DNA from: an uncultured Gammaproteobacteria bacterium
GTDB taxonomy: Bacteria; Patescibacteriota; Microgenomatia; UBA8517
Reading direction: 5' to 3'
DNA length: 55,933 nucleotides
NCBI GenBank assembly: GCA_964494885.1
Contig: CAZBTH010000006.1
Coordinates: 1 to 55,933 of the forward strand
Made by a program: the position numbers and the translations under genes. Each line of letters begins with the position of its first letter. Positions within the stretch are counted from its first letter, which is position 1. The notes under the pieces are model-generated. The model ran no database searches. It saw only the letters and a list, made by a program, of their open reading frames with translations, and was not told the origin of the DNA. Positions 27,851 to 54,957 of the stretch are shown in pieces.

Positions 27851-27888
27851 TCCTATTTCAAAACATAAAGATATGAAGGAGAAACAAA

Positions 27889-28887
27889 ATGAACGATGAA
27901 CTGAAAGCTGAACTTAAAAGTCTTGGTTTGACAGACGAACAGATTACCGCGATCGGGGAAAACCTTGGTGTGGTCTCCCGTGAGGACATGACGTTCGTTA
28001 CTGTCGAAATGCTGACGGAACTCAAGCTGAAGCCGATTGCGGCTGCCAAAGTGGTCCGTCATTTCAAGACCTCCGATGTCGCAACCACCGCGCCACTCGG
28101 CGAGAAGCCTTCCAAGGCAGACGTCGAGTCCTACGCCAAGAACATTGGGATGGATTCAGGAATGCTTATGGCATTCATGTTCGCGAACGCAGGCAGTGGT
28201 GCCGGGCTTGAAATGGACCTGAGTTCATTTATGCCTCTGGGCCCCATTGTGGCAGGCTATAGCCCCAAGCGCCGCGACATGAGCCTCATGGTCATGGGCC
28301 AGATCGAACGCCGCCTGGAAACTCCCATTGTTATCATCAACGCCGACGGCTCCGTAAATGCTGCCCTGACCGAAAAGTACATCCTCTCCCTGGAGGAAGG
28401 CTTTGATCCGGCAGAGGACGCTGTTTTCTACGATGAAGATGGCTCACCCTACGAGGTGGTTCGCGTTGGTGTGGATGCCCAGGGCATTTACGACGCCGAC
28501 CCGATTGACTCAACCCGTGCGCTTCAGCAAAACGGAATGGGCATCGGCCGCATCAACTGGCACAGTGTGCCTTTGGAGGTGCGTCAGGTGGCCTATTTCG
28601 CGACCCGCTCCGGCGAACTTTCGGCTGGTGATGAATCGAAGCTTCAGTGGCTTCGCACGAACATCAAGCCCGAAACCAAACGACTGGACCTGCGTAGCGA
28701 GTTCCCCAAAGCGATCGGCATGTTCAATGAAGCCAACCGCACGGGCTCTCTGCCTACACTGCGCGTTACGCTTGGTCGTGGCCCCCGCCGCAAGGAAGTT
28801 ATGCCTCGGCGCCGGCTCAATAGTGGTCCTCGTGACCTGTCCGGTCTCAAACGCATCGTTGGCGATCCCGGCGATCCCGATCAGTAA
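27889..28887 (+). CDS. hypothetical protein with N-terminal SAM/HhH-like helical domain
   Basis: LKSLGL...LGV....D...VT.EMLTELKLKPIAA.K pattern; strong SD. Confidence 0.75.
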   Translation: MNDELKAELKSLGLTDEQITAIGENLGVVSREDMTFVTVEMLTELKLKPIAAAKVVRHFKTSDVATTAPLGEKPSKADVESYAKNIGMDSGMLMAFMFANAGSGAGLEMDLSSFMPLGPIVAGYSPKRRDMSLMVMGQIERRLETPIVIINADGSVNAALTEKYILSLEEGFDPAEDAVFYDEDGSPYEVVRVGVDAQGIYDADPIDSTRALQQNGMGIGRINWHSVPLEVRQVAYFATRSGELSAGDESKLQWLRTNIKPETKRLDLRSEFPKAIGMFNEANRTGSLPTLRVTLGRGPRRKEVMPRRRLNSGPRDLSGLKRIVGDPGDPDQ

Positions 28888-28900
28888 TACTCTTCACCTC

Positions 28901-28991
28901 GCTCACTAAAGTGAGCAAACGAGCAGATTGAGCTTACGCTCCGGTTTGCGGGAGAATTTATTTTTTTAAATTCCCCGCAAACCGCTGCTCG
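28901..28991 (+). other. structured RNA: hairpin plus three-way junction
   Basis: GCTCACT/AGTGAGC; CGAGCAG/CTGCTCG enclosing GAGC/GCTC and CGGTTTGCGGG/CCCGCAAACCG stems. Confidence 0.7.
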
Positions 28992-29061
28992 AAACCTATA
29001 TGGATTAAATCCACACTGACGAGTTCTGTTTAAACTCAGTTTAAAAAAGAACGAAAGGTTT
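28992..29061 (+). ncRNA. type III hammerhead ribozyme
   Basis: Stem III AAACCT/AGGTTT, CUA cleavage site (after 28998), stem I TATGGAT/ATCCACA, CUGACGA core, stem II GTTCT/AGAAC, GAAA. Confidence 0.85.
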
Positions 29062-34586: not shown

Positions 34587-37307
34587 ATGTTAAACATTTT
34601 TTCCAAACTTCTTGATCTCAATGCACGCGAAGTCGACCGGCTTAAAAAAATTGTAGATAAAATAAATGGATTTGAAAATAAATATAAAAAATTTAATGAT
34701 GCTGATTTTAAAAAAGAAACCGATCGATTTAAAAAACTAATAGCTAATGGCTATCAACTAGACACTGTTCTTCCCGAAGCATTCGCTTTGGTTCGGGAGG
34801 CCGCTTGGAGAGTTCTTGGACAGCGTTCTTTTGATGTTCAGTTGGTAGCAGGAATAGCTCTTTTTGAAGGAAGGGTCGCCGAACAGCGTACAGGTGAGGG
34901 AAAAACTCTTTCTGCTGTGGCGCCACTATATCTTCGGGCTTTGACCGGTCGAGGAGTTCACTTGGTTACAGTAAATGATTATTTAGCCAGGATCGGGGCC
35001 GGGTGGATGGGTCCTGTTTATAATTTTCTAGGACTATCTACGGGAGTAATAATTCAGGAAACAAAGTCATTTGTATATGACCCAAAATTTAGTGACACAA
35101 GTCACGGTGATGAAAGACTCTCGCATCTAAAACTTGTTGAAAGGAAGATTGCATACCAGAGTGATATTTTGTATGGAACGAATAATGAATTTGGTTTTGA
35201 TTATTTGCGCGATAATATGGTTTCATCTCTGCCCGAAATGGTTCAGCGCGGACATTATTTTGCAATTGTAGACGAAGTCGACTCAATTTTGATCGACGAA
35301 GCCCGTACCCCCTTAATTATTTCGGCGCCGGATACGGAACCTACAAAAAAATATTACGAATTTGCTTCGCTTGTTGAGAAATTAAATCCGGACACAGATT
35401 TTAAGATTGATGAAAAAGCCAAGAGCGCAACCTTAACGGAGACAGGAATTACTCGAGTAGAAAAAATACTCGGAATAGACAATCTTTATGAGAAAGATTT
35501 TGACTCAATACACCACATTGAGAACGCACTTAGGGCCAAAACACTTTATCTTCGCGATAAAGATTATGTAGTCAAGGATAATCAAGTCACAATCGTCGAT
35601 GAATTTACCGGACGCCTTATGGTGGGTAGGCGCTGGAGCGATGGACTTCACCAAGCAGTTGAGGCAAAAGAGAACGTTACGATTCAACAAGAAAGTAAAA
35701 CTTTGGCAACTATTTCCTTCCAGAATTACTTCAGAATGTATGAATATCTAAGCGGTATGACGGGAACCGCATCAACCGAGGCGGAGGAGTTTAGGAAGAT
35801 TTACAAACTGGAAGTTATAGCCATACCCACACATATGCCTATGGTAAGGCGTGATAAGCCCGACCAGATTTATAAGACACTGCGTGGAAAATATGGAGCC
35901 ATGGTTGAAGAAATTTCTGAATGTTATAAAAATGGCCAGCCGGTTCTTGTGGGAACCACTTCAATCGAGAAAAACGAAGTTATTTCAGAATATTTAAAAA
36001 GGAAAAAGATTCCACATAACGTTTTAAACGCTAAAAATCACGAGAAGGAGGCAGAAATTATTGCGGAAGCAGGTAAACTTAGTGCTGTAACCGTTGCCAC
36101 AAATATGGCGGGACGTGGGGTTGATATTATTCTTGGGGGGGCAACCCCCGAAAGAAAGTCGGGACTAACGAGTGAAAAATTTTATAAATCAACTGAGTTT
36201 AAGAAATGGCAGGAATCGCACGACAAAGTAATTAGTGCGGGAGGTTTGCATGTAATAGGAACAGAACGACATGAAGCGAGGCGTGTGGACAATCAGTTGC
36301 GAGGCCGTGCCGGACGCCAGGGAGACCCTGGTTCATCACGTTTTTATCTTTCTTTGGAGGACGACCTTATGCGTATTTTTGGCGGCGAACAAATTTCCGG
36401 AATCATGGACCGGCTTAATCTTCCCGAGGATCAGCCGATTGAAAATTCATTAATTGGCCGCGCCATTGAACAAGCTCAGGTAAAAGTTGAGGGATTCCAT
36501 TTCGATATCCGTAAACGTCTTGTTGAATACGATGATGTTGCCAATCAGCAAAGAGAAATTGTATACAAACTCAGGCGGAGAATTTTGGATTCTTCTGATG
36601 TCAAAGAAGAGGTGGTGGAAAAGTTAAATCATCAGATAGAAAAAACGGTTCTTTTGTCAACTGACCCGGATCAACTGGCAGTTGGCTTAGCTGAAATGAT
36701 TCCTTTTGACGATGCCTCGTTAAAAAACATCAAAAATCAAATATCCCGCCTGCATGCGCCTGAGCGCAGCGATGGCGGGCAGGCAAAAATCAATGAGTTT
36801 ATGCTTCAGATTTTAACGGATGTTTATGGAAAAAGAGAAAAAGACCTTGGAGAAAAAGTTATGCGTGAGGTAGAAAAATATGCCTACCTCGGTGCTATCG
36901 ATCACCTGTGGATGGACCACATCGATCATATCGATGATCTTAGGGAAGGCGTGACCCTCCGAGCTTACGGTCAGCGTGATCCTTTAGTCGAGTTTAAAAA
37001 TGAAGCCTTCAATCTATTTGAAAGATTAATCGATAGGGTAGATGAAGAGCTTTCACATAGAATTTTCAGAATTGGCGTTGCCCAACCCCAGTCCGAAATT
37101 CCGCTTAATTTGGCGAGAGAAAATATTGATAAAAGTGATTCAACTGGTCTAACCGGAAACGCAGACCAAACTTCTAAATTTGGTGCTCCTGCTTTCCAGC
37201 CACCAGTAAGCAGTAAACAGTCAACAGGGAAGATTAGCCGCAATGATCCATGCTGGTGTAATTCTGGTAAAAAGTGGAAGCGTTGCCACTATCCCCAGTT
37301 GGGGTAA
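34587..37307 (+). CDS. secA: protein translocase subunit SecA
   Basis: TGEGKTL, DEVDSILIDEARTPLIIS, ATNMAGRG, QLRGRAGRQGDPG, SEC-C motif CWC.SGKKWKRCH. Confidence 0.98.
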   Translation: MLNIFSKLLDLNAREVDRLKKIVDKINGFENKYKKFNDADFKKETDRFKKLIANGYQLDTVLPEAFALVREAAWRVLGQRSFDVQLVAGIALFEGRVAEQRTGEGKTLSAVAPLYLRALTGRGVHLVTVNDYLARIGAGWMGPVYNFLGLSTGVIIQETKSFVYDPKFSDTSHGDERLSHLKLVERKIAYQSDILYGTNNEFGFDYLRDNMVSSLPEMVQRGHYFAIVDEVDSILIDEARTPLIISAPDTEPTKKYYEFASLVEKLNPDTDFKIDEKAKSATLTETGITRVEKILGIDNLYEKDFDSIHHIENALRAKTLYLRDKDYVVKDNQVTIVDEFTGRLMVGRRWSDGLHQAVEAKENVTIQQESKTLATISFQNYFRMYEYLSGMTGTASTEAEEFRKIYKLEVIAIPTHMPMVRRDKPDQIYKTLRGKYGAMVEEISECYKNGQPVLVGTTSIEKNEVISEYLKRKKIPHNVLNAKNHEKEAEIIAEAGKLSAVTVATNMAGRGVDIILGGATPERKSGLTSEKFYKSTEFKKWQESHDKVISAGGLHVIGTERHEARRVDNQLRGRAGRQGDPGSSRFYLSLEDDLMRIFGGEQISGIMDRLNLPEDQPIENSLIGRAIEQAQVKVEGFHFDIRKRLVEYDDVANQQREIVYKLRRRILDSSDVKEEVVEKLNHQIEKTVLLSTDPDQLAVGLAEMIPFDDASLKNIKNQISRLHAPERSDGGQAKINEFMLQILTDVYGKREKDLGEKVMREVEKYAYLGAIDHLWMDHIDHIDDLREGVTLRAYGQRDPLVEFKNEAFNLFERLIDRVDEELSHRIFRIGVAQPQSEIPLNLARENIDKSDSTGLTGNADQTSKFGAPAFQPPVSSKQSTGKISRNDPCWCNSGKKWKRCHYPQLG

Positions 37308-37350
37308 AAGTGCTGACATCCTGAGCAAAGTCGAATGGATGGAAAAAGTG

Positions 37351-38026
37351 TCAATATCCTCTATACTCCAATATCTTGTCAAGGTCGTTCCCCATAACCA
37401 TTTCTTTCTCTAGGTGTTTGTATTTTTCTGGAAACTCAAATTTTTTGCCAAACATCCAGGTATAGAAGACGGCGGTTGCTTTGACGTTGTTTTCGACTGT
37501 CTCTTTTGCAGGTTCACCACCAGCTTTGTGCACATCTCCAAAGTCGCCGATAAAATATGTAGTAATGCGAAGATCTCTTGGGTTGATTGCTATGAAAAAT
37601 GACTTATTTGTTAATATAAAAATATCAGTACCATTACTTTCTTTCAAAACAGGAATACAGGCCAATTCGCAGGCCTTCACCAGGTCTTTTCTAATTTGCG
37701 ACAAGACATTAGGTGGAATTCTTGATACGACATCTTTATACTCGTTTGAGTTTATTTCGCTGGCGTCCATGCTGTACACCCAAACATTTCCGTTTTCTGT
37801 CAGATCAGACAAAGCCATCCAAAGCTTATTTTCTTCGTCTTCAAAAATAAATGCTTCTTGTGGCGTGTTAACGCCGCATTCTTTTTAAGAAGAATTTCCC
37901 CACGTATCCATTCTCATCGTACAAATCTGCCATAAACTTGGGACCCTCTGTGCCCACATTCACCGTTTCTTTTACGTTAATTCTAAATACTTGGTTCTCA
38001 TCCTTGGGATTGTTAGTCGTTTCCAT
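37351..38026 (-). pseudogene. hypothetical protein split by a one-base insertion (ORF track 37351..37818 is the 3' part)
   Basis: ORF from ATG 38026 (METTNNPK...) joins 37818 if one A is removed from the run at 37882..37886. Confidence 0.6.
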
Positions 38027-38140
38027 TTTTTAAATATTCAAACCACTTGTGATTATAATGCAAACGAGTCGTTGTTTGTTTAGCTCGAAATTTAAGAATC
38101 CCAACACTTCTTGCTTGGATAATATATGATTTAGTTTGGT

Positions 38141-39589
38141 ATGGAACAGCACACAGAAGAATTTCCAATAGAAAGACCAACTACCCCAGGTACAGGTTAT
38201 TTGAGGCAAAAATATTTTGACGCAATTCATTCTGCAGAGAATATACCCGATGTATTAAAAGAGAGAAAAGCCTTTGCCTGCGTGGAAGAAAAACTTGATG
38301 TTATAAAGGAAGATCTAAAAGGCACCAATGACGCGCGCTCCACGCTTGAAGTAATTGGCCGTTTACTAACTGCTGAACCAAAAGATATCAGGTTGTTTGC
38401 AGCAGGCCTTGTAGATGAAAATTTTGCAAATCTAACAAAGAGAGTTAACACGGAGGGTTTTAAAGACTTAAATGCGATAGGAGAAACACCTCTCACAATA
38501 ACAACTCTGGCAAGGACTTTAGAAATTTTAGGGAATGCCGACCCAAGATCAGAAAAATATTTGGAATTTCTTGAGGATAACAAAGATGCGATAGTAGCTC
38601 TGTTTAGGCAGGGTAATGCGGGGGTGGGGGAAGCTTTGGCAATAACATTATTTAACATCCGCGGACGCGGGGATAAGGAAGCGCAAGCAGCAACAGATGC
38701 TCTGATTTGCGATTTGTTATTTGCAGAAGATGTTCAAGAACATAGAGTTCGTAAGTTTTTTGACAAATTGCAGGATTTTGAACCCAATTTAGCAAGTGTT
38801 TTTTTCAAAAAGACACTGGGAAAATATTTTAAAGATCAATCTGTCATAGATGATTTAGTAGATTCTTACCAAGTAAGAACTGATTATTCACCGGAATTAA
38901 GCAGCATTGAGGTTTATAAGACTCTAAAAATTTGTGAGGGGATAGACAAAATCATTCCCGGTGGAAGTGAAAGAATCAATAAATTATTTGGGATTACACA
39001 TTTTGCCCGTTATTCGGGGGAAATGCTTATTGCGCAGTTGAGGGATTGGGACAGTGGGGACAAAACACCCTACGGCGTATATGTTGGTTCTTGGAATGAT
39101 TGGAATCGTAACATCAGTGGTAGTGATAATGAAGCGATTTTTGGAAAAGTTAAAAAACTTGGTTTTAAGTTCAGGGTAATAGAAGCTAGAGACAAAGAAG
39201 AGTTTGTAATGAGGCAGGTGGCACTAAGTCAGCAGTTTAATGGAGCGGATAAATTTCACTTTTTGATTATCAATGCCCACGGGTCTCCAAGAGGTTTTTA
39301 TTTAGGTAGAAATAACGAGGGGTTTGTCGGAATTGGCGACATACAATTGTTAAAAAAGGATCTGGCGGCACTTTACATGTTTTCAATGCAAACACTTTTT
39401 CGGTCGTGTTCTACAGGAGTTGAGGATGGTTTTGCCGAAAACTGGGCCGATTCCGGAATTGAATCGATTGGCCCTAAACGTGACGGGGATTTGGCGGGTA
39501 TAGAACCGTTTTTAAGGCCGGGAGGACTTATCGGTTTTCGCGTAATTGACGGCAAAGTAGGAATGAACAGGTATCCAAGGTTGAAGTGA
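38141..39589 (+). CDS. hypothetical protein with C-terminal caspase/CHAT-like His-Cys domain
   Basis: IINAHGS ... LFRSCSTG dyad pattern. Confidence 0.6.
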   Translation: MEQHTEEFPIERPTTPGTGYLRQKYFDAIHSAENIPDVLKERKAFACVEEKLDVIKEDLKGTNDARSTLEVIGRLLTAEPKDIRLFAAGLVDENFANLTKRVNTEGFKDLNAIGETPLTITTLARTLEILGNADPRSEKYLEFLEDNKDAIVALFRQGNAGVGEALAITLFNIRGRGDKEAQAATDALICDLLFAEDVQEHRVRKFFDKLQDFEPNLASVFFKKTLGKYFKDQSVIDDLVDSYQVRTDYSPELSSIEVYKTLKICEGIDKIIPGGSERINKLFGITHFARYSGEMLIAQLRDWDSGDKTPYGVYVGSWNDWNRNISGSDNEAIFGKVKKLGFKFRVIEARDKEEFVMRQVALSQQFNGADKFHFLIINAHGSPRGFYLGRNNEGFVGIGDIQLLKKDLAALYMFSMQTLFRSCSTGVEDGFAENWADSGIESIGPKRDGDLAGIEPFLRPGGLIGFRVIDGKVGMNRYPRLK

Positions 39590-39602
39590 GTATTGGTAAC
39601 TG

Positions 39603-40400
39603 TTAGACTAATTTTCCCGCATTAATCGCTCTCATTCCGATTCTATTTATTCGAACCACAATTTCTCGGTTTTTAAATTCCCTTTCGTTTATGGGTCCAT
39701 TTATCTCGCGAATAAAATAATGACCTTTTTTGCCCTGGCGCAAAATACAATTACCTACTTTGAAATTACTTCCCTCTTTGTCAATTTCTTTCCACGCGTC
39801 TTCCGGCAACGAAGCAAACATATACATAGTTTCAAACAATCTGCCTTCGTGTTTTTGACGAAACTCTTCCGCGAGCATAAAGTGGTCCTTGTAATCGGCT
39901 ATGAATTTTTCAAAGTGAAGAGTTTTTGATGTATTGCCTACTCCAAGCACCATTTCAGCTTTATAGAAAGCGTCTACAAAACTAAAACCGTCCTGTTCAT
40001 AATAATAACGGCTCCAATCGTTGCCATACCTCTTCTTGTGATTCTCAAGACTGTTTTCATTGGGCTCAGTATCAACCTCTATGTTTTGAATTCCATAAAT
40101 AGACATAATGTTTTCGGCTTTTAAAAAATGCGGTAAAAGCGCGTTGGACCAATCGTGAAGCGGGAGGGCAATACTTAGTTTTCCAACAGCGTTTCTATCC
40201 GTCAAAAAAGCACGGTCAGCGTTTTCAGGGGTACGTGCGGTCCATTCAATGTTTTTCATTGAGAGAGCGAACATATCCCTGATCTCTTCAACGCTAAATT
40301 GCCGCTTCCAACCCTCTACGTTTACAGTGAATTCCTGTTTGGCAGACATGGAACTAGTTTTTAGGGAGGCATTCATTTCTTGGTAATTAACCGGCGACAT
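39603..40400 (-). CDS. hypothetical protein
   Basis: 265-aa ORF with TATACT just upstream. Confidence 0.65.
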   Translation of the reverse strand: MSPVNYQEMNASLKTSSMSAKQEFTVNVEGWKRQFSVEEIRDMFALSMKNIEWTARTPENADRAFLTDRNAVGKLSIALPLHDWSNALLPHFLKAENIMSIYGIQNIEVDTEPNENSLENHKKRYGNDWSRYYYEQDGFSFVDAFYKAEMVLGVGNTSKTLHFEKFIADYKDHFMLAEEFRQKHEGRLFETMYMFASLPEDAWKEIDKEGSNFKVGNCILRQGKKGHYFIREINGPINEREFKNREIVVRINRIGMRAINAGKLV

Positions 40401-40492
40401 GCTGACAGTATAACAAATGTCACAGTTTTAGCCTCCAAATACTGTTACTGCAAAATCAAGAAACAGGACATCATTATATTTATATGTTTAAT

Positions 40493-40587
40493 TATCCGAA
40501 TAATCGATTAATCGGATAAAAACAAAACTTGATCAGCCGGACTGTCATTTCAAAATGTGCCACTACCCAAAACTGTCTGGCGACTAA
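40493..40587 (+). repeat. inter-cassette repeat 1: palindrome plus secA-3'-end-like tail
   Basis: TATCCGAATAATCGATTAATCGGATA...CATTTCAAAATGTGCCACTACCCAAAA (reads HFKMCHYPKL). Confidence 0.8.
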
Positions 40588-40634
40588 TCTTATAGTTTGT
40601 AAAATTCTCCACAATCTATTATAATCCTCCATCT

Positions 40635-41339
40635 ATGACAGCTGAAATATTACATCATAACCTGGCTCCCAATTTTGGGTTACGTCTGGCCACACAGAAA
40701 AAATTTGAGGAAATACGCCGAAGCAGGGGCGACCGTGAATATACATACCTGAACGGTGAATATAGTGAATCGCTAGTAAACTATATCCAGTCTCTTGCCA
40801 AAGAGCTCCTCCAGGCCAAGAGACTTGTAATTTTATTAGACATTGGCGGCGGTAAGGGAAAAAGTTGGGGAAGAATCGCTGAAGGGTTTAAAACCGAAAT
40901 TCAGGAAAGCAGAATAGCCTTTGTTGTTAGTAGCATTGATCTTCCCAAAAAACCAGAACAATGGATTCACCATGTTGTCGGTTTTTTTTCTGAACTTCCA
41001 GACAAGACGATTATATTACCTTCCGGAGTAGTCGTACCCTTACTAAAAAATGTAAATGTAATGCACGAAAGCTGTTCATTAACTTCCTGGAGTCTGATTC
41101 CTGAGACAGACATCATGAATATTGGAATACTGGCTTCTTCCAATTCCACATATTTAGTACCAAAAATCGATACGATTCGCTTTAACGGCGATTTAGTAGA
41201 AGAAGATCGGCATATACGGGAAGGTGTGGAGATTGCCCATCGGAAACTTCAGGACAAATTTGGTTTTACAAAGACCGAAAATCAAAATATAAATACGATT
41301 CAATTTCCCGAAATGCCGTACTTGATATTTAGTAGATAA
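40635..41339 (+). CDS. methyltransferase-fold hypothetical protein
   Basis: LLDIGGGKG glycine loop. Confidence 0.55.
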   Translation: MTAEILHHNLAPNFGLRLATQKKFEEIRRSRGDREYTYLNGEYSESLVNYIQSLAKELLQAKRLVILLDIGGGKGKSWGRIAEGFKTEIQESRIAFVVSSIDLPKKPEQWIHHVVGFFSELPDKTIILPSGVVVPLLKNVNVMHESCSLTSWSLIPETDIMNIGILASSNSTYLVPKIDTIRFNGDLVEEDRHIREGVEIAHRKLQDKFGFTKTENQNINTIQFPEMPYLIFSR

Positions 41340-41382
41340 GCCCAGCGAAGCCATCGTTAAATGTTTTTGTTATCATATACAG

Positions 41383-42654
41383 ATGGATATGGAAAAGCCG
41401 CCAATTTTAACTTCAGTAGAAAGACCAATTGAGGAAGGAGACTTTGTTCTTGTGTTGGAATCTGCAGTTCTACCCGCCACCAAACCAGACATATCTACTA
41501 CCCAGGCTTTAATATCTCAGGTTCGTCAAAAGTATCACGGACAAGACAAGGTGATTTTGGCAGAGCCCGGAGAAAATATAAACACAAGTATTCCTGAAGG
41601 GTCCACGACTGGTTATATTAGGACTTCAATGCTTGTTCCGTTTAGAGTAGAAGCAGACGAAACTTTTAAATCATCGGATGAAGAAATAGAAAAAGGAGAA
41701 CCGGTGAGTATTAGGATAGGGAAAAAAGATGGTTCTGCATATATAGTTGATGGAATTTGTAGAGGATATGATTGGCATATAGATGGCTACAGAGTATCTG
41801 TTAAAAACGAGGAAGGACTTGAAGCTTTACTGCAAATTAACAAGGAGAATATTGAAATCAGGGTTGATTCCACTATCGAAGACTTCTCAAAATTTTGGAG
41901 AGAATTCATACAGATGGATCCATTTCCAGGTATATATGATACTTCTCAGGTTACGCAGATCGTCTGTCGCGAGCCGGAACTTATAAAGAAATACCTACCG
42001 TTGATTGAAAAAACTGAAAATGTTTATAAAATTTTGCAAATAATCGACAATAATCCGATGATTGCCTACAAGCTATTTAACATTTTTACGGAGGTGCCGG
42101 AATTGATAGATGTCTATGCTAAATTTGCTCTGCGTGTGCCTTACTTGTATCAAGATGCGGAAGAGGGTAGGGAATACCGTTCGGAACCAACTAGAATATC
42201 ATCATCTCCCGACCCTGAATTTATAAGACATAAACTTAATCAGATTAAAGAAATTGAAAATAAGTTGGAAACTTATTTGGAAGGTAGGGAATATGCAATT
42301 ATTGCCGAACCCCTGGATGGTCTAGCCTTTGTCAGTATTGTTCCTATAAAAAGTAGATCGGGTATAGACGGGATTTCTATATTGATAGCGCCGGGGAAGG
42401 GAAATGATTTTGTGTCAGTAGTAATTCGAGTTTTTTCTAACGGCACCGTTGATTCGGGTCTAAAGTATAATGATTGGTACGATCTGGGTTATATGTTTAA
42501 AGAGAACCCGGCAATCGACGAAGAGGAGTTTTTAAATGCTCTGGTTAATAATGTTCCAATGTCAGATGAAATGAATCTGGCTTTGGAAAAAAGTGGCAGG
42601 TCAAATGGTAAACACGGTAAATTCGAAAGACTTGTTTTGCAGAGCGAAGAATAA
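41383..42654 (+). CDS. hypothetical protein
   Basis: 423-aa acidic ORF. Confidence 0.7.
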   Translation: MDMEKPPILTSVERPIEEGDFVLVLESAVLPATKPDISTTQALISQVRQKYHGQDKVILAEPGENINTSIPEGSTTGYIRTSMLVPFRVEADETFKSSDEEIEKGEPVSIRIGKKDGSAYIVDGICRGYDWHIDGYRVSVKNEEGLEALLQINKENIEIRVDSTIEDFSKFWREFIQMDPFPGIYDTSQVTQIVCREPELIKKYLPLIEKTENVYKILQIIDNNPMIAYKLFNIFTEVPELIDVYAKFALRVPYLYQDAEEGREYRSEPTRISSSPDPEFIRHKLNQIKEIENKLETYLEGREYAIIAEPLDGLAFVSIVPIKSRSGIDGISILIAPGKGNDFVSVVIRVFSNGTVDSGLKYNDWYDLGYMFKENPAIDEEEFLNALVNNVPMSDEMNLALEKSGRSNGKHGKFERLVLQSEE

Positions 42655-42660
42655 ATACAC

Positions 42661-42740
42661 TATCCGAATAATCGATTAATCGGATAAAAAGAAAACTCGA
42701 CCGGCCGGACTGTCATTTCAAAACATACCACTACCTAAAA
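42661..42740 (+). repeat. inter-cassette repeat 2
   Basis: Near-identical to 40493..40572. Confidence 0.85.
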
Positions 42741-42789
42741 AGTTGCTTCTTAAGCAAATGCAGTTAACCTTCTAATGTATAATGAAGCT

Positions 42790-43509
42790 ATGGAACATAT
42801 AGATAGCATAGAAGTTCGCGTTTCTGAGTTACAGCGGAGGGTTTCTGGATATTTATCCATGAAAGATAACGAAATGTTAAAGGAGTTACTTCCCTGGATC
42901 GAGAAAAACGTCACAAAAGAAGTAGTCGACAGAATGACGAATATTAAATTTCAACGTAAGTTGGAAGATGCCACGACTAAAGTGGCCGATACGCCTCTGG
43001 ATATTGCAGACTCCAAAGATGGTGGGAAGTTGGTTATGCCCATTAAGGAAGGATATACGGTAGTTGCCGTAGATGAGAAAGGGTTGCCCATAGGTTGTGT
43101 ACATAAACCCGTTTCGGCATATGAAGGGTTTAATGTAGTTGGGGTTGCATATGAGAAAGCTCTTTTGTTAAAAATTCTAGAAGATGAAGGCAAAACTGGA
43201 GGTTTAAGAGACGGGGATAATATGAGATCTGTTCAGAAAAGGGGTTTTACAAGACATTGGGGTTCTGCAAATAAGTTAGCAAAAGTAGAGGATGTTGGTA
43301 AAGTTGCGTTGGGTGCAAGTGGGGTAGGACAGGGAGACGAAGAGAACATGCGACTGCTTGACGGTGGCATTCCATCTACTTATACAAATGCTGGACTATT
43401 CGACACTTTTATGGCTGATCAAACAAGAATTGCGCTAGAAAATCCCGATATTCCCGCGATGCCATCGCTCGAACCGGACTGGTTCGAACCGGAACTAAGT
43501 AAACATTAG
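42790..43509 (+). CDS. hypothetical protein, GlcG/HbpS-like fold possible
   Basis: VVAVDEKG, VAYEKA and ALGASG motifs. Confidence 0.55.
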   Translation: MEHIDSIEVRVSELQRRVSGYLSMKDNEMLKELLPWIEKNVTKEVVDRMTNIKFQRKLEDATTKVADTPLDIADSKDGGKLVMPIKEGYTVVAVDEKGLPIGCVHKPVSAYEGFNVVGVAYEKALLLKILEDEGKTGGLRDGDNMRSVQKRGFTRHWGSANKLAKVEDVGKVALGASGVGQGDEENMRLLDGGIPSTYTNAGLFDTFMADQTRIALENPDIPAMPSLEPDWFEPELSKH

Positions 43510-43524
43510 ATGTGAGGGGGATAG

Positions 43525-43565
43525 CCTATTTAGCCAGCATTTCAAAAAGTGCCCATCCCCAAGAA
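43525..43565 (+). repeat. inter-cassette repeat 3
   Basis: CCTATTTAGCCAG-CATTTCAAAAAGTGCCCATCCCC. Confidence 0.7.
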
Positions 43566-43667
43566 AATTCGTAAATACGAATAAGACCTTACTTCTTACA
43601 ATCACCCATAACCAAATAGGGTTCGAGATTGTTTAGTACGACACCACATACTATACTACTTATTGTT

Positions 43668-44717
43668 ATGAACCTAACTCGCAATAATGTGTTTTATCCA
43701 AAAACAGAGACCCCTCTTTCAGATAGTGAACGATTATCTTTGCGTGACCGCTATGATCGATTTAATGCAGAAGTTGAACTAGCAAAGATTTGCGAATTTG
43801 TTTTTCGTCAAAAACCAAAATCTTTTTTTAAAATAATTGCATGGGGGTTAGATCACATTCTCTACGATGTCACCTTGAGTGATAAAAGGATTGTTGTTCG
43901 TATTAATCAAACTACAGTAGAAGATGACTATTTCGAGGCAGAAGAGTACATTTATAAAAAACTAATAGAACTTAATATACAAAAGTGTTCTGTGTATCAT
44001 GTTGAAAAGAGGGGTAGTAGTTTCTTATACGATTTTATTATTTTGGATAAACTAATGATAGGTGATTTTGAAAAACTTCTACAGGAGGGAGAATATAAAA
44101 CTGATCAAGAAACAATTTTGGTAAAAAAGTCTGGTGAGTTCCTTAGGAAAATACATTCTATTAAAACTTCAAAATACGGTTTTTTTGACAGATCACAATT
44201 AACTAGTGGTTTAATTGGTACAAAAGATACCTGGGTTGATTATTATTTAACTGCATTTGATATAAATTTGTCTACTCTCATAGAATTAGATTATATAAAT
44301 GAAGAAAAAGAAAAACAAATTAAGGATGTTGTGGAAAATAACAAGAGTTTGTTAATTTGTGAAAATCCAGTCCTTCTACATGGTGACTATTGTGATCACA
44401 ATATAATTAGTGATATGAATGGTATAACAGGTGCCATTGATTGGACAGATGCTATGAGTGGGGATCCACTTCACGATATTGCTTTTTGGTCATCGTTTTA
44501 TCCAATAGAAAGATTGGATATTTTTCTAGACGGATACTACGGCTCAGAAATAAAACCCGCTACTTTTTGGGATACTCTAAATTTATCCCTTCTACGTATA
44601 AATGTTTCAAAGGCTGTTTTACGTCATAAATATGGCATTCCTGAGAGAGTTCCTCTTGCTATTAAAAAAATCAATGAAAGTTTAGATTATTTTAATAAAG
44701 GAAAATATGTTGTGTGA
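43668..44717 (+). CDS. aminoglycoside phosphotransferase/choline kinase-family protein
   Basis: LLHGDYCDHNI, IDWTDA, GDPLHD motifs. Confidence 0.85.
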   Translation: MNLTRNNVFYPKTETPLSDSERLSLRDRYDRFNAEVELAKICEFVFRQKPKSFFKIIAWGLDHILYDVTLSDKRIVVRINQTTVEDDYFEAEEYIYKKLIELNIQKCSVYHVEKRGSSFLYDFIILDKLMIGDFEKLLQEGEYKTDQETILVKKSGEFLRKIHSIKTSKYGFFDRSQLTSGLIGTKDTWVDYYLTAFDINLSTLIELDYINEEKEKQIKDVVENNKSLLICENPVLLHGDYCDHNIISDMNGITGAIDWTDAMSGDPLHDIAFWSSFYPIERLDIFLDGYYGSEIKPATFWDTLNLSLLRINVSKAVLRHKYGIPERVPLAIKKINESLDYFNKGKYVV

Positions 44718-44720
44718 TAT

Positions 44721-44772
44721 CCTATTTAACTAGCATTTCAAACAATGCCATTACCCAAAACCTCCAAACTAA
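44721..44772 (+). repeat. inter-cassette repeat 4
   Basis: CCTATTTAACTAG-CATTTCAAACAATGCCATTACCCAAAA (reads HFKQCHYPKPPN*). Confidence 0.8.
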
Positions 44773-44811
44773 GTTCTTGACTTCGGTAAATATTCGGTTT
44801 AAATTAAAATT

Positions 44812-45624
44812 GTGACAGACACTCAAATTGCATTATTTAGAAATAAAGGAATAAGAAAAACAATTTATAACGGAGATTGGTATTTTGTGATTATTGATAT
44901 TGTCTCCGCCCTTACCAATTCGGTTCAGCCCTCAGGATATATAAAGGATATGAGGAGACGTGATCCGGAGCTCTCTAAAGGGTGGGGGCAAATTGCCACC
45001 CCCCTTTTGATAAATACGTCAGGAGGCGCGCAAAAAATCAACTGCGCATCGACTGAGGGTGTGTTGAGAATTATTCAATCGATTCCGTCACCAAAAGCTG
45101 AACCAATGAAAAAGTGGCTGGCTAGGGTTGGGTTTGAAAGAATCCAGGAAATTGAAGACCCGGAACTTGCAACAAGACGTACAAGATTTCTATACAAAGC
45201 AAAAGGTTATCCTGATTCCTGGATCGAAAAAAGAATGCGTGGAATAGCAATTCGTGAAGAACTTACTGATGAGTGGCAAAAACGGGGGGCGGAAAAAGAT
45301 CTGGATTATAAAATTTTAACCGCAGAAATTTCGAAAGCAACTTTTGGCATAACTCCAACACAATACAAAAAATTAAAAGGATTAAAACGCCAAAATCTTA
45401 GGGATCACATGGATGATTTTGAATTAATTTTTACTATGCTTGGGGAACGTTCGACAACAGAAATCCACAAAGTGGAAAATTCAAAAGGGACGAAAAAGCT
45501 CAAAAAAGACGCGGAAGAAGGTGGTGAGATCGCCGGAGTTGCAAGAAGAAAATTGGAAAAGAAACTAAAAAAGTCGATAGTAACGAAACAAAACTTTCTT
45601 TTAAAAAGGAAACATATAGAATAG
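44812..45624 (+). CDS. BRO-N domain (phage antirepressor-like) protein
   Basis: IRK....WYF.IIDIV, RIIQSIPSPKAEP.K.WLA.VG.ER, LRDHM motifs. Confidence 0.85.
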   Translation: MTDTQIALFRNKGIRKTIYNGDWYFVIIDIVSALTNSVQPSGYIKDMRRRDPELSKGWGQIATPLLINTSGGAQKINCASTEGVLRIIQSIPSPKAEPMKKWLARVGFERIQEIEDPELATRRTRFLYKAKGYPDSWIEKRMRGIAIREELTDEWQKRGAEKDLDYKILTAEISKATFGITPTQYKKLKGLKRQNLRDHMDDFELIFTMLGERSTTEIHKVENSKGTKKLKKDAEEGGEIAGVARRKLEKKLKKSIVTKQNFLLKRKHIE

Positions 45625-45726
45625 AATAACTTCATAACCTTGCATATTCCGAAAATCCAGCGATTAATCGGATAGTTGTCAACAAACTTCTTTAAACTTT
45701 CTTCGATAACTCATATACTTCAGATA

Positions 45727-46929
45727 ATGAACATCAAAATCGAGAAGAAAAGTTTGAACGGAGGCATTTATCTTTTGATCTCTGCCGTCATTTACGGTTT
45801 ATATGGGGTTTACTCAAGATTTTTGGGTGCAAGTTTTGGTTCTTTTTCCCAAAGTTGGGTTAGGTCATTTATTGTTTTGGTGATTTTGTGCGTTTTGTTG
45901 TTGGCAAAGAAATTTGAATGGACGAGGATAGAGAGAAAAGATATAAAGTGGTTTTTGATTTGGATTCTACCCGCCTCGATTCAACCGGTAATTACATTTA
46001 TTGCCTTTAACCATCTACCGTTAGCGACGGCTTACTTCTTGATCTATTCAACCATGATTTTGGGCGGAGTAATGTCTGGGAAAATATTTTTTTCTGAAAA
46101 ATTTACTTTTATGAAAATAATATCGCTCTTGTCTGTTTTTACAGGTCTATTACTTATCTATGGTACTGATATCGGTTTGGTTTCAAACATCTACGTTGTC
46201 CTCGCGCTAGTATCAGGTCTCCTTGTTGGTTTTTGGAACACTCTCACTAAAAAAGTTTCCGGGAAATACTCCGAATTTCAGATGATGACTCTGGATCAAT
46301 TGGTGACAATGATTGTTTGCGGGATTGGGGCATTTTTCTTCAAAGAGTCTCTGCCGCCCCCATCAAATATGAATGGCTGGTTTTGGATTTTTGTTTTTGC
46401 GGTTTCAGGAGTAATCACGGTGTTTCTTTTGATAAGAGGATTCAAATATGTGGAGGCGCAAGTCGGTAGTCTTATTCTCCCCATGGAAATTGTTTTTGCT
46501 TCAATTTTTGGACTAAAGGTTTCTATTCCGAATTCGGTCGTATCAAAATTTGCTTCGAAATATTTAATAGTGTTCTTTCCCACTTTTTCCACAATCTCTC
46601 CTTGGTTTGTGGAATCGCTTCCAATTTGCACTACGAGGGTTGGAGTAGTCCCTTCAAACTTCAGCCCAACCGGTTTGACACCGGTAAGTTTTTCGCAGAT
46701 ATTCAAAAGATTTTTACATTCCATGATGCGACTTGGCAATTCTTTCTGGTCGCCGTCGAGAACTTCTAACTTTAAGTATTCTTCTCTTCTTTTTTCACCG
46801 ATTTCATTCCACCACCGATTAAATTCTTTTTGCCTGTGGGCTTGTGTTTTTTCTGTTTTTCTGCCTAATTCCTGGGTTGATCGGGTTTTTTCTTCTTTCA
46901 TAGCCGTATTAAACAACTTTGGGACATAA
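45727..46929 (+). pseudogene. DMT/EamA transporter truncated at about 46512 and reading on into the antisense of the next gene
   Basis: EamA-type TM pattern up to EIVFASIFG, then sequence that is the antisense of the 46901 ORF. Confidence 0.7.
46296..46901 (-). pseudogene. hypothetical protein truncated at about 46515 and reading on into the DMT antisense
   Basis: Protein-like charged N-terminal ~130 aa, then antisense of DMT codons. Confidence 0.55.
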
Positions 46930-47000
46930 ATATCAAATTTCTGGAGCCCTTTTCAAACTCCTTTAAATTTCCAAAAATTCAAACTATACTTCAACTAAAT

Positions 47001-47339
47001 ATGAAATACATAAACAAGACTCTTTCCAAAATTGATATACAAGGGATCAAAAAAGAATTTGGGGATTACGTAAAGATAACGGCGGATCTAGAAAATAAAA
47101 AAATCGTAGTTGGATGCGAACTTCATGCAGATGGGGAAAAAATTCTTCTCGAAAAGGGTGGAAAACAGGGCAATATTTGGGGTGGGGGATTAAACCTAGA
47201 AGACAAAATCATCGATACAGCAGCTGTATTAAATATTCGCTCAAGACTTGGAAACGATAGTATGGAAATATTAGATGCGCAAAACAGGGAAAAATTTGTT
47301 AGTATTGTAAAAGAATATTTTGAAAACTTATGGCATTAA
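47001..47339 (+). CDS. DUF5674-like protein
   Basis: ELHADGE..LL..G..Q.NIWGG, NIR...N.SMEI.D motifs. Confidence 0.75.
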   Translation: MKYINKTLSKIDIQGIKKEFGDYVKITADLENKKIVVGCELHADGEKILLEKGGKQGNIWGGGLNLEDKIIDTAAVLNIRSRLGNDSMEILDAQNREKFVSIVKEYFENLWH

Positions 47340-47554
47340 ATAAATTTTCTCAAACATCAGATAAAGTGGCTAATCTTTACCGGGCGGCATTTTATCTTGC
47401 CAAAGGGTCAAACAAAGTAGGTTTGGAATTTTTAGACAAATCTGGTGTATCATTTGAAGATCTTAGAATCGATAGTCAAGTCAGTAGACTTTATTGGGCA
47501 GAAAAAATTTTGGACGAATATTTAAAATTAAAACACAATGGAAAACAAAAATAA
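47330..47554 (+). CDS. small hypothetical protein
   Basis: Overlaps both neighbours in an operon-like arrangement. Confidence 0.65.
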   Translation: MALNKFSQTSDKVANLYRAAFYLAKGSNKVGLEFLDKSGVSFEDLRIDSQVSRLYWAEKILDEYLKLKHNGKQK

Positions 47555-48047
47555 CTTATACATTATAATTTTTGTAGCGATACTGGCTATTGTCGGCGGA
47601 ATTTATATTTTTGCAACGAAAAAACCAACCGATAATCAACCCTTGGCAACGGCTATACCATCCGCTACAATTGAGCCTTCGGCCGAGCCGGTCGCGACAA
47701 GCTCAGCTAATCCAAAAATGGAAAACAAATTAATAATAGTAGACGAAGTAATAGGAACAGGTGCGGAAGCAATTAGCGGTAAAAAGATAACTGTGAATTA
47801 TTCCGGAACCCTCATAGACGGAACAAAATTTGACAGTTCCTACGATCGCGGAACTCCGTTTTCATTCAATTTGGGAGCGGGAGAAGTAATCAAAGGCTGG
47901 GATCAAGGATTTGCCGGCATGAAGGTCGGCGGGAAAAGAAAATTAACAATTCCCTCGGACTTAGCCTACGGCCCAAATGGCATCCCCGGTGCAATTCCCG
48001 GCGGCGCCACTTTGATTTTTGAGGTAGAACTCCTTAAAGTGGAATAG
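47538..48047 (+). CDS. FKBP-type peptidyl-prolyl cis-trans isomerase, membrane anchored
   Basis: VNYSGTL.DGTKFDSSYDR, VIKGWDQG, LAYG, LIFEVELL. Confidence 0.95.
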   Translation: MENKNNLYIIIFVAILAIVGGIYIFATKKPTDNQPLATAIPSATIEPSAEPVATSSANPKMENKLIIVDEVIGTGAEAISGKKITVNYSGTLIDGTKFDSSYDRGTPFSFNLGAGEVIKGWDQGFAGMKVGGKRKLTIPSDLAYGPNGIPGAIPGGATLIFEVELLKVE

Positions 48048-51817: not shown

Positions 51818-52028
51818 TGCCTCACGTCTTTTGACTGGGTGCCAGTCATTTTTTTTGCGACTGGGTTTTCAGTGTAAAAAGTGGACATTAACATCTTCAA
51901 GAATATTAACAAAAAGGTAAAACTTTTTTCTCCTAAATTGATGCCGATGCAAGAGACTACCTAAATCTTTTAACTAGGCGGTTTCTTCTAATCGGCATCA
52001 ACCATTCAATTTGAAAGGAGATTTTGAT

Positions 52029-53996
52029 ATGAAGAATCGAAAGAAGAATTTAGTTGTCGTTTTGTTGGCAATTGGTGTCTTAATGCTTGTTTCACTGGCC
52101 TGCGGCTCTACCGCACCATCACAAACAGCACCCCCAATTGCTGGCACAAACACGGGGGATCAGGTGCACTACACTGTGCAAGAGCTCTACAGCGAGGCAC
52201 AGCAAATCACTGAGACTAACGTTACGAGTCGCATGCACATGCGTGCCTGGCTTTGGTTCTTTGCGTTGGTTTTGTTTGTGATCGATGTGGGTATTATTTT
52301 TGGAGTCGAGGGAGCCGGGTGGTGGTCCGCCGCTGTTGTGGTGGCAATTCTGCTTGGTTCACTTGGCGCTGTAATAAACAATTCTCAAATCCCCGGAAAA
52401 GTTGACCGAATCGGCCATGATCTGGCGGATAAGGCGATCACTCAAGGTGTTGATTTGGCTCAGCGCGCGCAGGCTACGAACTATCAGTATATTCATGCGG
52501 TGATCTCACAGATCGGTGTCGAATCGGAACCTTGTCAACGGACAGTGAATCATCATGACTTCTGTTCAAGCAACACGAACTACTATACCCATCGCGAGAT
52601 CAACTCGCATCAAGTGTGTACGACTTCGACAGACTCGGATGGTAATACGACTGAAAGTTGTCATGAGGAGCACGACGACGAGTATACCCCGTGGTTTACT
52701 AACGTTGTGCGGTATTACATCATACCCGACACTCGCGCCAAGTATTTGAGTGAACAGATTTATCACCAGCTTTGTCTGGCTGACTCTGGCGCTTTTGAAC
52801 CCTGCACGAAGGACGAGAACGGCAACGTCAACGACAAGCGGAAACCAGTTGTTTATGCGAACACGGATTGGCGTGCCCCGCAGAATGCTATGAATCACCT
52901 CTATTGTGAAACAGGCATCTTCGGAACGTCCTGCGAGCGACCTCGTGATTCTTATAACGAGCACGTCCCTGACGCGTACATGACAGTGAAGAAGGCCAAA
53001 GAAAATGGAGGCCCGGTTGTGGATGCTACGTTTGTAGGACCCTATTTCAACTGGGGTTTTGCGGCCGACAGTCCACTTTACGATGTCTACGACGGTGACT
53101 ACAACAACCTCAAAGGCGTGATGAACTTACCTGGTCCCAGTGGTGTCAAATTCACGATCAATGACGCATACGGCAACCCTGCGACTTTACCCACCCAGCT
53201 GGTTGCTACGGACGGCGACTTGGCGATCGGTTTCAATCCGATCTTCGTCATCGGCAGTTGTATTTCCCAGGAACAACTTCAGGGTTATGCAGAATATGCC
53301 ATGACTGTCCAAGGGGACTTCGGTCCTACAAAGCAGGGTTCGCTTCGCTGGTTCCTGGTTTGCGATTCGATTGTTACTCGTCTCGGCGGAATGCCCTACA
53401 CTGTTTCTGCAGTGAAGGCGTACCTCCGTGACTCGGGCGTGTGGAGCTTGTTTTCAATGCCCAAAAACCTCGTGATTTCTGTGACCTCCATCAGCGATGA
53501 CGGAACACGGATTACCGGCCGCGGTCTGGAAACAGGCATGCCTACCGGCAATGATGTACTCATCAGTCACGTAACGGCAAGTGTTCGTGCGGGCGATAAT
53601 TTGTTCTTGACCAAGGAAAACCTCTTTGGTTCATTCTCGGCAAGTTATGTCGCTTCGCAGGCGGACAAATTCCAATACCAGTTTTCTGACCTGACTCAGG
53701 CCGGCAGTGTTGTGGGGCTTCTCTACGAGACAGATCCCAACTACACCCCTCCCGACCCATCGGATCCTGCTTGTAATCAAGCCAAGGCTGACCATGTTGG
53801 CTTTGTGCGGTACTCGACTTGCAACACCGATTACCTCAAGACGACCATCGAGGTCAACGAGGACGGTCGGTTCCTGATCATGAACATGGTTACGGCCGGG
53901 GCAATTGCTTCTACACCCGTTTGGGGTGCGTGGGTTGTTCTCGTCTTAGCCATAATTTGTCTGTTCCTCGCCGGTTCGGTGCGGAGTCAGATGTAG
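52029..53996 (+). CDS. Cys-rich lipoprotein-signal membrane protein
   Basis: Lipobox SLAC, two TM helices, large Cys-rich soluble region, C-terminal TM; SD gaaaggag. Confidence 0.8.
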   Translation: MKNRKKNLVVVLLAIGVLMLVSLACGSTAPSQTAPPIAGTNTGDQVHYTVQELYSEAQQITETNVTSRMHMRAWLWFFALVLFVIDVGIIFGVEGAGWWSAAVVVAILLGSLGAVINNSQIPGKVDRIGHDLADKAITQGVDLAQRAQATNYQYIHAVISQIGVESEPCQRTVNHHDFCSSNTNYYTHREINSHQVCTTSTDSDGNTTESCHEEHDDEYTPWFTNVVRYYIIPDTRAKYLSEQIYHQLCLADSGAFEPCTKDENGNVNDKRKPVVYANTDWRAPQNAMNHLYCETGIFGTSCERPRDSYNEHVPDAYMTVKKAKENGGPVVDATFVGPYFNWGFAADSPLYDVYDGDYNNLKGVMNLPGPSGVKFTINDAYGNPATLPTQLVATDGDLAIGFNPIFVIGSCISQEQLQGYAEYAMTVQGDFGPTKQGSLRWFLVCDSIVTRLGGMPYTVSAVKAYLRDSGVWSLFSMPKNLVISVTSISDDGTRITGRGLETGMPTGNDVLISHVTASVRAGDNLFLTKENLFGSFSASYVASQADKFQYQFSDLTQAGSVVGLLYETDPNYTPPDPSDPACNQAKADHVGFVRYSTCNTDYLKTTIEVNEDGRFLIMNMVTAGAIASTPVWGAWVVLVLAIICLFLAGSVRSQM

Positions 53997-54023
53997 ATAC
54001 ATTTCAACAAAGGAGAAAAACCA

Positions 54024-54944: not shown

Positions 54945-54957
54945 TTGGAGAGACGAG

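Follow-up and report, generated by a model that had tools for sequence, protein, structure and literature searches.

SCCmec and other SCC elements (SCC, staphylococcal cassette chromosome) are inserted into the 3′ end of rlmH (orfX) by the large serine recombinases (LSRs) CcrAB or CcrC with the reading frame kept, and target repeats bound tandem elements there, including recombinase-less pseudo-SCC elements. The islands at ssrA of Dehalococcoides stand in tandem behind a single-copy essential gene and are delimited by 20-bp repeats of its 3′ end with a conserved 15-bp motif upstream; a CcrB-like serine recombinase of ∼540 aa is encoded on the reverse strand at attL, and islands without a recombinase were proposed to be cis-mobilizable (McMurdie et al. 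2011, PMC3146451). In the accretion of cis-mobilizable elements (CIMEs), as presented in a 2017 account (PMC5704250), elements that lack integration genes and retain attachment (att) sites lie in tandem to functional ones and are moved by composite excision. Here we analyse a locus behind secA in a 55,933-nt stretch of DNA from a groundwater member of the Microgenomatia (contig CAZBTH010000006.1 of assembly GCA_964494885.1), referred to in its full length as the window. The region from 37278 to ∼45640 is likely to consist of tandem integrase-less islets, accreted at the attachment site of secA-targeting LSR elements in Microgenomatia.

The locus resembles the Dehalococcoides ssrA islands in its tandem units, repeats of the target 3′ end, a conserved motif upstream of these, an LSR gene on the reverse strand at attL (in relatives) and the presence of units without an integration module. 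It differs in that the target is not a transfer-messenger RNA gene but the protein-coding zinc-finger tail of secA, whose codons are restored, in its Microgenomatia hosts and in its many single-gene units of 0.7–2 kb. The six-gene integration module and second small recombinase of the Dehalococcoides islands were not seen beside the secA LSR, although no systematic search for them was made. With SCCmec the locus shares LSR insertion into the 3′ end of a housekeeping gene with the frame kept, and tandem recombinase-less units between target repeats; unlike SCCmec it has a single full-length LSR (compared with phage integrases, at most 28% identity), another target gene and host phylum, and no resistance island. 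CIME accretion was described mainly for tyrosine recombinases, the att sites of which have an identical core, whereas the secA units follow the half-site logic of LSRs, with attB-type left ends and attR-type right ends. Like the large serine integrases of phages and integrative and conjugative elements (SPbeta SprA/YokA, TP901-1, A118), the secA enzymes have the same domain architecture and an attP of ∼50 bp with inverted arms, but their sequence identity to these is low, and in place of a recognisable phage the islands contain either defence genes or a set with primase, LexA-like and methylase genes. Integrons offer a fixed platform and promoter-proximal, small, mostly single-gene recombinase-less cassettes, each closed by a recombination site; at secA, in contrast, the recombinase of relatives is a serine recombinase, and an essential gene provides the platform with its coding end. 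The analogy with integrons is only a loose one. No paper on secA as the target of a recombinase, or on islands of this sort in candidate-phyla bacteria, came up in a literature search; supplements such as the target tables of island databases lay outside its scope and could hold secA. The system belongs to a known kind, that of tandem islands driven by LSRs and situated at an essential gene's 3′ end, and is distinctive in its use of the secA zinc-ligand codons, in its hosts and in its many tiny recombinase-less units.

The secA product of the window ends in KKWKRCHYPQLG (in a longer stretch, CWCNSGKKWKRCHYPQLG) before the stop codon, the zinc motif of its SEC-C domain being CWCNSGKKWKRCH and its tail YPQLG. 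Behind the gene lie five copies of such a tail, R0 to R4, in tandem. No recombinase gene is present among the open reading frames (ORFs) of the array, in agreement with the first-pass annotation of the window, which had called the array integrase-less. The features are as follows.

34587..37307, + strand: secA, the target gene (Pfam SecA_DEAD, P-loop_SecA, SecA_SW, SecA_PP_bind, SEC-C).
37275..37307, + strand: present secA end; TGG (the B arm) 37275-37277, then AA 37278-37279 (predicted crossover), then G CGT TGC CAC TAT CCC CAG TTG GGG TAA, the tail reading K-R-C-H-Y-P-Q-L-G and stop.
37320..37335, + strand: CCTGAGCnnnGTCGAA, one copy of a hairpin repeat dispersed in the genome; it separates the present tail from R0.
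37340..37359, + strand: R0, decayed displaced tail, TGG AAA AAG TGT CAA TAT CC (W K K C Q Y P).
37351..40400, both strands: cargo of unit 1; ORFs 37351-37818 (−) (or 37481-37888 (+)), 38141-39589 (+) and 39603-40400 (−).
40493..40587, + strand: R1; palindrome 40493-40518, variant P arm up to CATTTC 40546-40551, AA 40552-40553, tail ..K M C H Y P K L S G D and stop, to 40587.
40635..42654, + strand: cargo of unit 2; ORFs of 234 aa and 423 aa, function without assignment.
42661..42745, + strand: R2; palindrome 42661-42686, P arm up to CATTTC 42714-42719, AA 42720-42721, degenerate tail.
42775..43509, + strand: cargo of unit 3; ORF of 244 aa, no family match.
43515..43574, + strand: R3; near-canonical P arm GATAGCCTATTTAGCCAG followed by CATTTC (43538-43543), AA 43544-43545, tail with a 2-nt deletion, otherwise C H Y P Q E N S and stop.
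43629..44717, + strand: cargo of unit 4; APH-family phosphotransferase-like kinase (Pfam APH, E 2.3e-19).
44705..44772, + strand: R4, the best-preserved attR; P arm GATATCCTATTTAACTAG followed by CATTTC (44734-44739), AA 44740-44741, tail K Q C H Y P K P P N and stop.
44812..45624, + strand: BRO-N / PDC-S13-like gene (Pfam Bro-N; PADLOC PDC-S13, E 4e-104; phrog_15286).
45645..46929, + strand: ancestral right flank; degenerate palindrome 45645-45674 and EamA transporter, then DUF5674, FKBP, VTT and TGT.

The sequence CATTTCAAA has six copies in the window against 2.29 expected, and at least six were reached in 1 of 100 shuffles. Four of the copies are intergenic on the + strand (40546, 42714, 43538 and 44734), exactly where the first-pass annotation had placed its four repeats, the translations of which were also correct. 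Across the genome to which the window belongs (G000; 1.14 Mb, 40% G+C, 34 contigs, 95.6% complete) CATTTCAAA occurs 27 times, and the continuation TGCCA..CC is restricted to the four array copies. A site profile that was derived from 24 homologous sites in genomes other than this one, and thus excluded the window sites, was searched independently against the whole genome and returned R4 (E 1.3e-11), R3 (8.6e-5), R1 (2.3e-3) and the tail of secA itself (0.16). By motif search and by profile, the extended motif is confined in this genome to the secA locus. R0, TGGAAAAAGTGTCAATATCC, had been overlooked; it starts 32 nt past the secA stop codon, is identical to the secA tail of the congener G001 at 18 of 20 bases, gives a weak match in the profile search and has a degenerate counterpart in a second congener, G002.

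Pairwise, R1 and R2 are 90% identical over 80 nt, and R3 and R4 81% over 43 nt. In the comparison of R1 to R4 the homology continues leftward, which places each unit to the left of its own repeat; the units are therefore made of genes followed by a repeat, and not, as first proposed, of a repeat, a promoter and a gene. Promoters had been claimed after every repeat. Consensus matches follow just two of them, R1 (40597-40625) and R4 (44777-44805), and the number of promoter-like sites, 26 against 25.7 expected, shows no enrichment.

Two further repeats touch this region. A 26-nt palindrome, TATCCGAATAATCGATTAATCGGATA, which forms the left part of R1 and R2, has seven copies in the genome when counted by its 14-nt core (window 40493-40518, 42661-42686 and 45645-45674; C4:15512, C12:9131, C32:23 and C32:531). 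It also occurs behind secA in G001, flanked there by TTGACA-like hexamers; it could represent either an operator or a dispersed repeat of small size. The hairpin repeat CCTGAGCGAAGTCGAAGG is dispersed in 14 copies in the genome, including that at 37320-37335 between the secA stop codon and R0, and the layout of secA, hairpin repeat and tail recurs in G034, from a different family.

An LSR gene of 520–545 aa lies convergent to the 3′ end of secA in eight genomes (G013, G014, G024 and five more). The ORFs of G014 and G024 (522 and 544 aa), which are 50% identical to each other, carry the Resolvase, Recombinase and Zn_ribbon_recom domains, and their stop codons lie 3–9 nt from that of an extended secA, which runs for 31–33 codons past CH (INREPQ..., INSVPQ...) instead of reading CH-YP.... 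A closing repeat (CATTTCAAAnnnTGYCA-TTTTCC/TTATCC) is found 17 and 13 kb beyond the LSR in G014 and G024, respectively, and islands in LSR-bearing relatives measure 13–17 kb. The cargo of these two islands comprises GmrSD, SMODS, an Eco57I-like methylase and a PLD-helicase in one set, and a primase-helicase, a LexA-like repressor and a C5 methylase in the other. G013 has the same arrangement, with an LSR 76% identical to that of G014. A scan of one genome per species for LSR loci gave nine, of which the seven with at least 48% identity (two being the G014 and G024 contigs) all had a convergent, adjoining secA, the ends of the tblastn matches being ∼90–115 nt apart; the hosts were Woesebacteria, Roizmanbacteria and Microgenomates metagenome-assembled genomes. 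The other two, distant matches in Clostridia (26–27% identity), had no secA alongside. The closest solved structures were those of SPbeta YokA (E 5e-19), TP901-1 and A118, and identity to phage integrases did not exceed 28%. The first-pass annotation had proposed site-specific integration into the SEC-C codons of secA, with the tail replaced and the old one left downstream, and this is borne out by the recombinase gene, attL, attR and free attP of relatives. Its comparison with an integron needs correcting, since the enzyme family in relatives is that of large serine recombinases and the sites do not fold like attC: when R1 to R4 were folded as + strands, and R1 and R4 as − strands too, none did better than shuffled sequences (z = −1.41, 1.58, −0.60, 0.62, −0.17 and −0.13). 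An integron proper was rejected, as there is no IntI beside the array and the sites are not attC-like hairpins; the only Phage_integrase matches in the genome, at C2:50951 and C22:8730 (C22:8730-9209), are tyrosine recombinases on other contigs.

Nine attL junctions were examined, at the seven LSR loci, in G013 and in G011, which has no LSR. Eight of the nine read W/Y-K-K-C-H followed by I/L/M-N-..., most with AAATAGGGWACC, an inverted copy of the P arm that was confirmed by reverse-strand profile matches; the junction of G011 differs, reading K-R-C-H-MFSD... without AAATAGGGWACC. The consensus of 28 aligned attR sites is ..GTGGTACCCTATTTnnCTAG CAYTTC AA RAARTGYCAYTAYCC, followed by varied native-like tails (YPN, YPQLPT or YPQIG and stop). 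The arms of attP, GGTACCCTATTT... and ...AAATAGGGTACC, are inverted copies of each other around CATTTC-AA-GAAGTGTCAT, so that a palindromic attP is predicted. A gapped two-arm search of metagenome contigs gave 12 loci, two of which (L120 and L128) hold the 50-bp site GGTACCCTATTTGAATAGCATTTCAAGAAGTGTCATTTGAATAGGGTACC with inverted arms matching at 14 of 16 positions. An LSR 66% identical to that of G014 lies ∼100 nt from this site, and no secA within 2 kb; from its sequence, this is an unintegrated element with a free attP. The attP pattern had no match in viral contigs.

The AA that follows CATTTC occupies bases 25-26 of the 50-bp attP, its dyad centre, and the comparison of attL with attR confines the exchange to the 12–14 nt between the W/F codon and CAY, an interval that includes the AA. 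Because of the dyad centre, the predicted crossover is placed in the Lys codon that comes next to W/F in the SEC-C motif, at its AA. Across the class CATTTC is conserved, and in most cases an in-frame stop codon comes before it. It forms the inner end of the P arm of the element, and therefore only the sequence from AA onward is displaced secA; the earlier view of the repeats as former coding tails of secA is right from that point on and wrong for the CATTTC ('HF'). In the secA frame the P′ arm reads K-K-C-H-L-N-R-V-P, so the element brings its own replacements for the codons of Cys and His, the final pair of zinc ligands. Native tails, CH-YP.., are found in 29 of 33 relatives with a located motif. 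R1 to R4 are attR-type junctions, made of a P arm and a B′-type secA tail, and R0 is a fifth, decayed tail.

Gene content behind secA is variable, as the first-pass annotation expected, and differs even within the genus. In G001, secA is followed by 40 nt, the palindrome, EamA remnants and DUF5674-FKBP-VTT-TGT; since secA and flank are thus nearly adjoining, ∼8.3 kb (37308 to ∼45640) is extra in the window relative to G001. Most of EamA is lost there, and the remnants (L032, reverse strand, ∼1030–1130 nt into the stretch) align with window 45661-45719 and 46456-46497. G002 has YdjM and a homologue of the 423-aa ORF between secA and EamA, and in G010 FKBP follows secA. The pattern CATTTCAAANNNTGYCAYTWYCC, allowing at most one mismatch, gave 23 sites in 19 of 401 genomes of the class, and a reversed control one match; the majority of the sites border small cassettes that have no LSR. 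Outside G000 and G024 there were 20 sites, 19 of them not inside a long ORF and 16 with a stop codon directly upstream of CAY; the site of G345, inside an ORF of 342 codons, is a chance match. Where up to 20 kb upstream was fetched (12 genomes), secA lay 0.7–13 kb upstream on the same strand in 11, and a secA-type LSR in none of the stretches. Two sites each were present in G366, G193, G049 and G252, again with no LSR in the stretches. Among the secA-downstream stretches of 39 relatives, sites were found in G000, G011, G014, G018, G024 and G027, always on the strand of secA, and a truncated site in G013. LSR-less units measure 0.7–3.3 kb and contain one to three genes, in the window and in 10 other genomes. 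Their cargo in relatives includes homing-endonuclease-repeat proteins, Fic, S26 and C39 peptidases, TspO, DUF2177, DUF1295 and sugar-metabolism genes, as well as a MNT-HepT pair, a radical-SAM enzyme, a Mur ligase, an AAA_14 ATPase, ABC-F and a CCA-adding enzyme.

In three relatives a gene on the opposite strand lies directly behind secA (L109:17001-17600 in G309, L111:475-1137 in G245 and L112:14509-14814 in G193). The genes of G309 and G245 are HNH_repeat homing-endonuclease-like; for the ORF of G193, which has no Pfam match, the likeness to HNH was judged by eye. Behind the G309 gene stands a copy of the tail whose left arm is of the secA type (AAGTACAAA...). These may be a second kind of mobile gene that uses the same secA codons. 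Mini-units of ∼65–90 nt occur in the first 300 nt after secA in G034 (L076) and G039 (L081) and consist of a new K-R-C-H-Y-P tail, TGACATC, a short arm and then the displaced tail; in G034 a run of N separates two identical copies.

The present tail of the window secA was compared with others. Its codons AAG CGT (K-R) stand against AAA AAG and AAA AAA (K-K) in the congeners G001 and G002, and the 11-mer AAGCGTTGCCA after the W codon is common to the window secA and to G011, the tail of which is non-native; related K-R tails occur in G034 and G214. Because of the departure from the congeners and the 11-mer shared with the G011 junction, the present tail was probably supplied by an element, although the end of secA is attB-like and looks native. 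The left ends of units were scored for the inverted outer motif of the P′ arm against 200 null windows. In the LSR-bearing G014 the motif matched at 13 of 18 positions at +15, and none of the 200 null windows was as good, whereas it was found in none of 20 LSR-less units at a null frequency of at most 0.05. The LSR-less units thus lack a P′ arm and are B′...P segments (attB-cargo-attR), as a model of accretion needs. A variant in which they keep a P′ arm displaced further out was ruled out by the same null test on the 20 units.

LSRs recombine attP with attB and, with a directionality factor, attL with attR, and the integrase shows no activity at the resulting sites. Under accretion, the units, as B′...P segments, would be cis-mobilizable elements. 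A helper LSR element would integrate at the attB of secA, upstream of resident units, and excision with a distal attR would carry these units to a new host; after integration there, excision with the proximal attR would leave behind the units and the tail of the former host. Each round would add one displaced tail, with the newest unit nearest secA, and the incoming element would supply new K-K-C-H codons for the SEC-C zinc finger. We favour this scheme because it uses the two known LSR reactions only. It would account for tails that are native-like and yet differ from each other, for the lack of a recombinase and for mixed P-arm types in one array. The units of the window probably moved in trans, and the array may have been built by repeated events in this genome or imported as blocks.

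Could the units have entered one by one? Each might be an integrase-less circle inserted singly into secA by a recombinase acting in trans, its right arm restoring both tail and target so that insertions could follow in series in this genome, along the integron-like lines of the first-pass annotation. A present secA tail that looks element-supplied and yet native-like would suit this, as would the small size of the units here and in the 10 other genomes, and mini-units of 65–90 nt (new tail plus short arm) in G000, G034 and G039. Such a circle would, however, bear a P|B′ site, at odds with the missing outer P′ motif in all 20 LSR-less units; no circles appear in the assembled contigs, and recombination of an attR-type with an attB-type site is no known LSR reaction. 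We consider single insertion doubtful. The units could also be immobile fossils, the in-situ remnants of full LSR elements whose recombinase was deleted, and the scrambled tail of R2, the 2-nt deletion of R3 and the decay of R0 do favour this; in addition, G002 has the 423-aa gene too, about as diverged as the flanking core genes, and the arrangement is identical in two studies. Deletion of an LSR would nevertheless leave a non-native attL tail (IN.../LN...), whereas 11 of 15 LSR-less arrays, that of the window included, have native-like tails and attB-type left ends, and a decayed attL does not offer the attB that a new integration needs. This explanation we hold to be unlikely. An origin without any mobility, with the repeats as local duplicates of the 3′ end of secA or as a motif by which downstream genes are regulated or terminated, could invoke the consensus promoters behind R1 and R4 and the genome-wide palindrome that is part of R1 and R2, but is highly improbable: the left half of the repeat is not secA, is conserved in the class and, on contigs that lack secA, forms an inverted-repeat attP by an LSR gene; the sites show no folding (z from −1.4 to +1.6) and the content of the locus varies; and the convergent LSR-secA loci, the attR alignment and the free attP all contradict it.

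Accretion by helper LSR elements has several observations to contend with, which weigh against it. Non-native secA tails are present in 4 of the 15 LSR-less arrays (G011, G049, G129 and G214), which is unexpected if units are dropped off as described, and the origin of the first B′...P unit is unexplained by the canonical LSR rules. None of the stretches examined contained a composite LSR element, one with an attR inside it, and the own genome lacks a secA-type LSR in its 95.6%-complete assembly. The P arms of R1 and R2 deviate from the canonical form, and R2, being too degenerate, was missed by the independent profile in the whole-genome search. Cargo in some relatives is housekeeping-like (S26 signal peptidase, Mur ligase, CCA-adding enzyme), so that parts of such arrays may be old and fixed. 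Finally, the assembled contigs gave no direct sign of excision, circles or empty sites.

These contigs came from six runs of two studies and were mapped on window 36000-48000. The array is contiguous in contigs of the probable source runs X1 and X3, and X5 and X6 give identical short pieces. A single joint, from 40518 to 42656 (X3, shorter side 28 nt), falls on the R1/R2 repeat and for this reason is read as an effect of assembly. The search of the genome for a recombinase that the first-pass annotation had suggested did yield two LSRs elsewhere, though none of the secA type: one at C2:77531-79162 beside ychF and the other at the end of C22, both at most ∼27–30% identical to the secA-type LSR. 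The former, a 543-aa LSR, overlaps the start of ychF (both within C2:76471-79162) and may mark another island, at the 5′ end of this essential GTPase gene. The latter, a resolvase-domain ORF (C22:14833-16529, open frame of 580 aa), runs off the contig end.

The cargo of the window array gave few functional leads. The APH and BRO labels of the first-pass annotation are supported by Pfam, whereas its methyltransferase-like (40635-41339) and GlcG-like (42775-43509) genes have no support in Pfam or NCBIfam. For the APH-like kinase every specific NCBIfam resistance model was far under its cut-off. The ORFs of unit 1, none of which is a recombinase, had no match in Pfam, PHROGs or PADLOC and only sub-threshold ones in NCBIfam; in the Atlas, leads for the 482-aa and 423-aa ORFs were weak or absent, and PHROGs, PADLOC and NCBIfam scans of the window gave nothing beyond BRO/PDC-S13 and a generic APH. 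The homologue of the 423-aa ORF at the same locus in G002 is 76% identical, and the 244-aa ORF is rare in relatives, with a single weak homologue among 120 other genomes of the family. The BRO-N / PDC-S13-like gene, between R4 and the ancestral flank, is missing from G001 and G002 and is either older cargo or an insertion with a lost site. Contig depth over this gene (44822-45623) is 3–5 times that of its neighbours in four runs, with many partial matches from other organisms; the BRO-N domain is common in the source community. Elsewhere in the window, 27001-29000 and 52001-55000 have 49–56% G+C within the 40% genome, and the ORFs 52011-53996 and 54024-54944 have no Pfam match and are 91–96% conserved in G001; Rfam gave no rRNA there.

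For the Patescibacteria the locus provides a concrete mobile-DNA system, with a recombinase family, a 50-bp attP, an essential-gene target and footprints, and it accounts for a variable hotspot of accessory and defence genes in ∼4–5% of the sampled genomes of the class. It shows an element living inside the zinc-finger codons of secA by bringing replacement ligand codons, and a serine integrase with inferred attP and attB is raw material for genome-engineering tool sets. More tentatively, and as a possibility that we rate below even, secA may be an integron-like platform run by serine recombinases, at which helper LSRs, picking among attR sites, move recombinase-less units between hosts, and the half-site RAARTGYCAYTAYCC (K-C-H-Y-P) ensures that the zinc finger is rebuilt at each event. 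If true, candidate-phyla bacteria, in which few mobile systems have been described, would have here a general route for exchanging genes.

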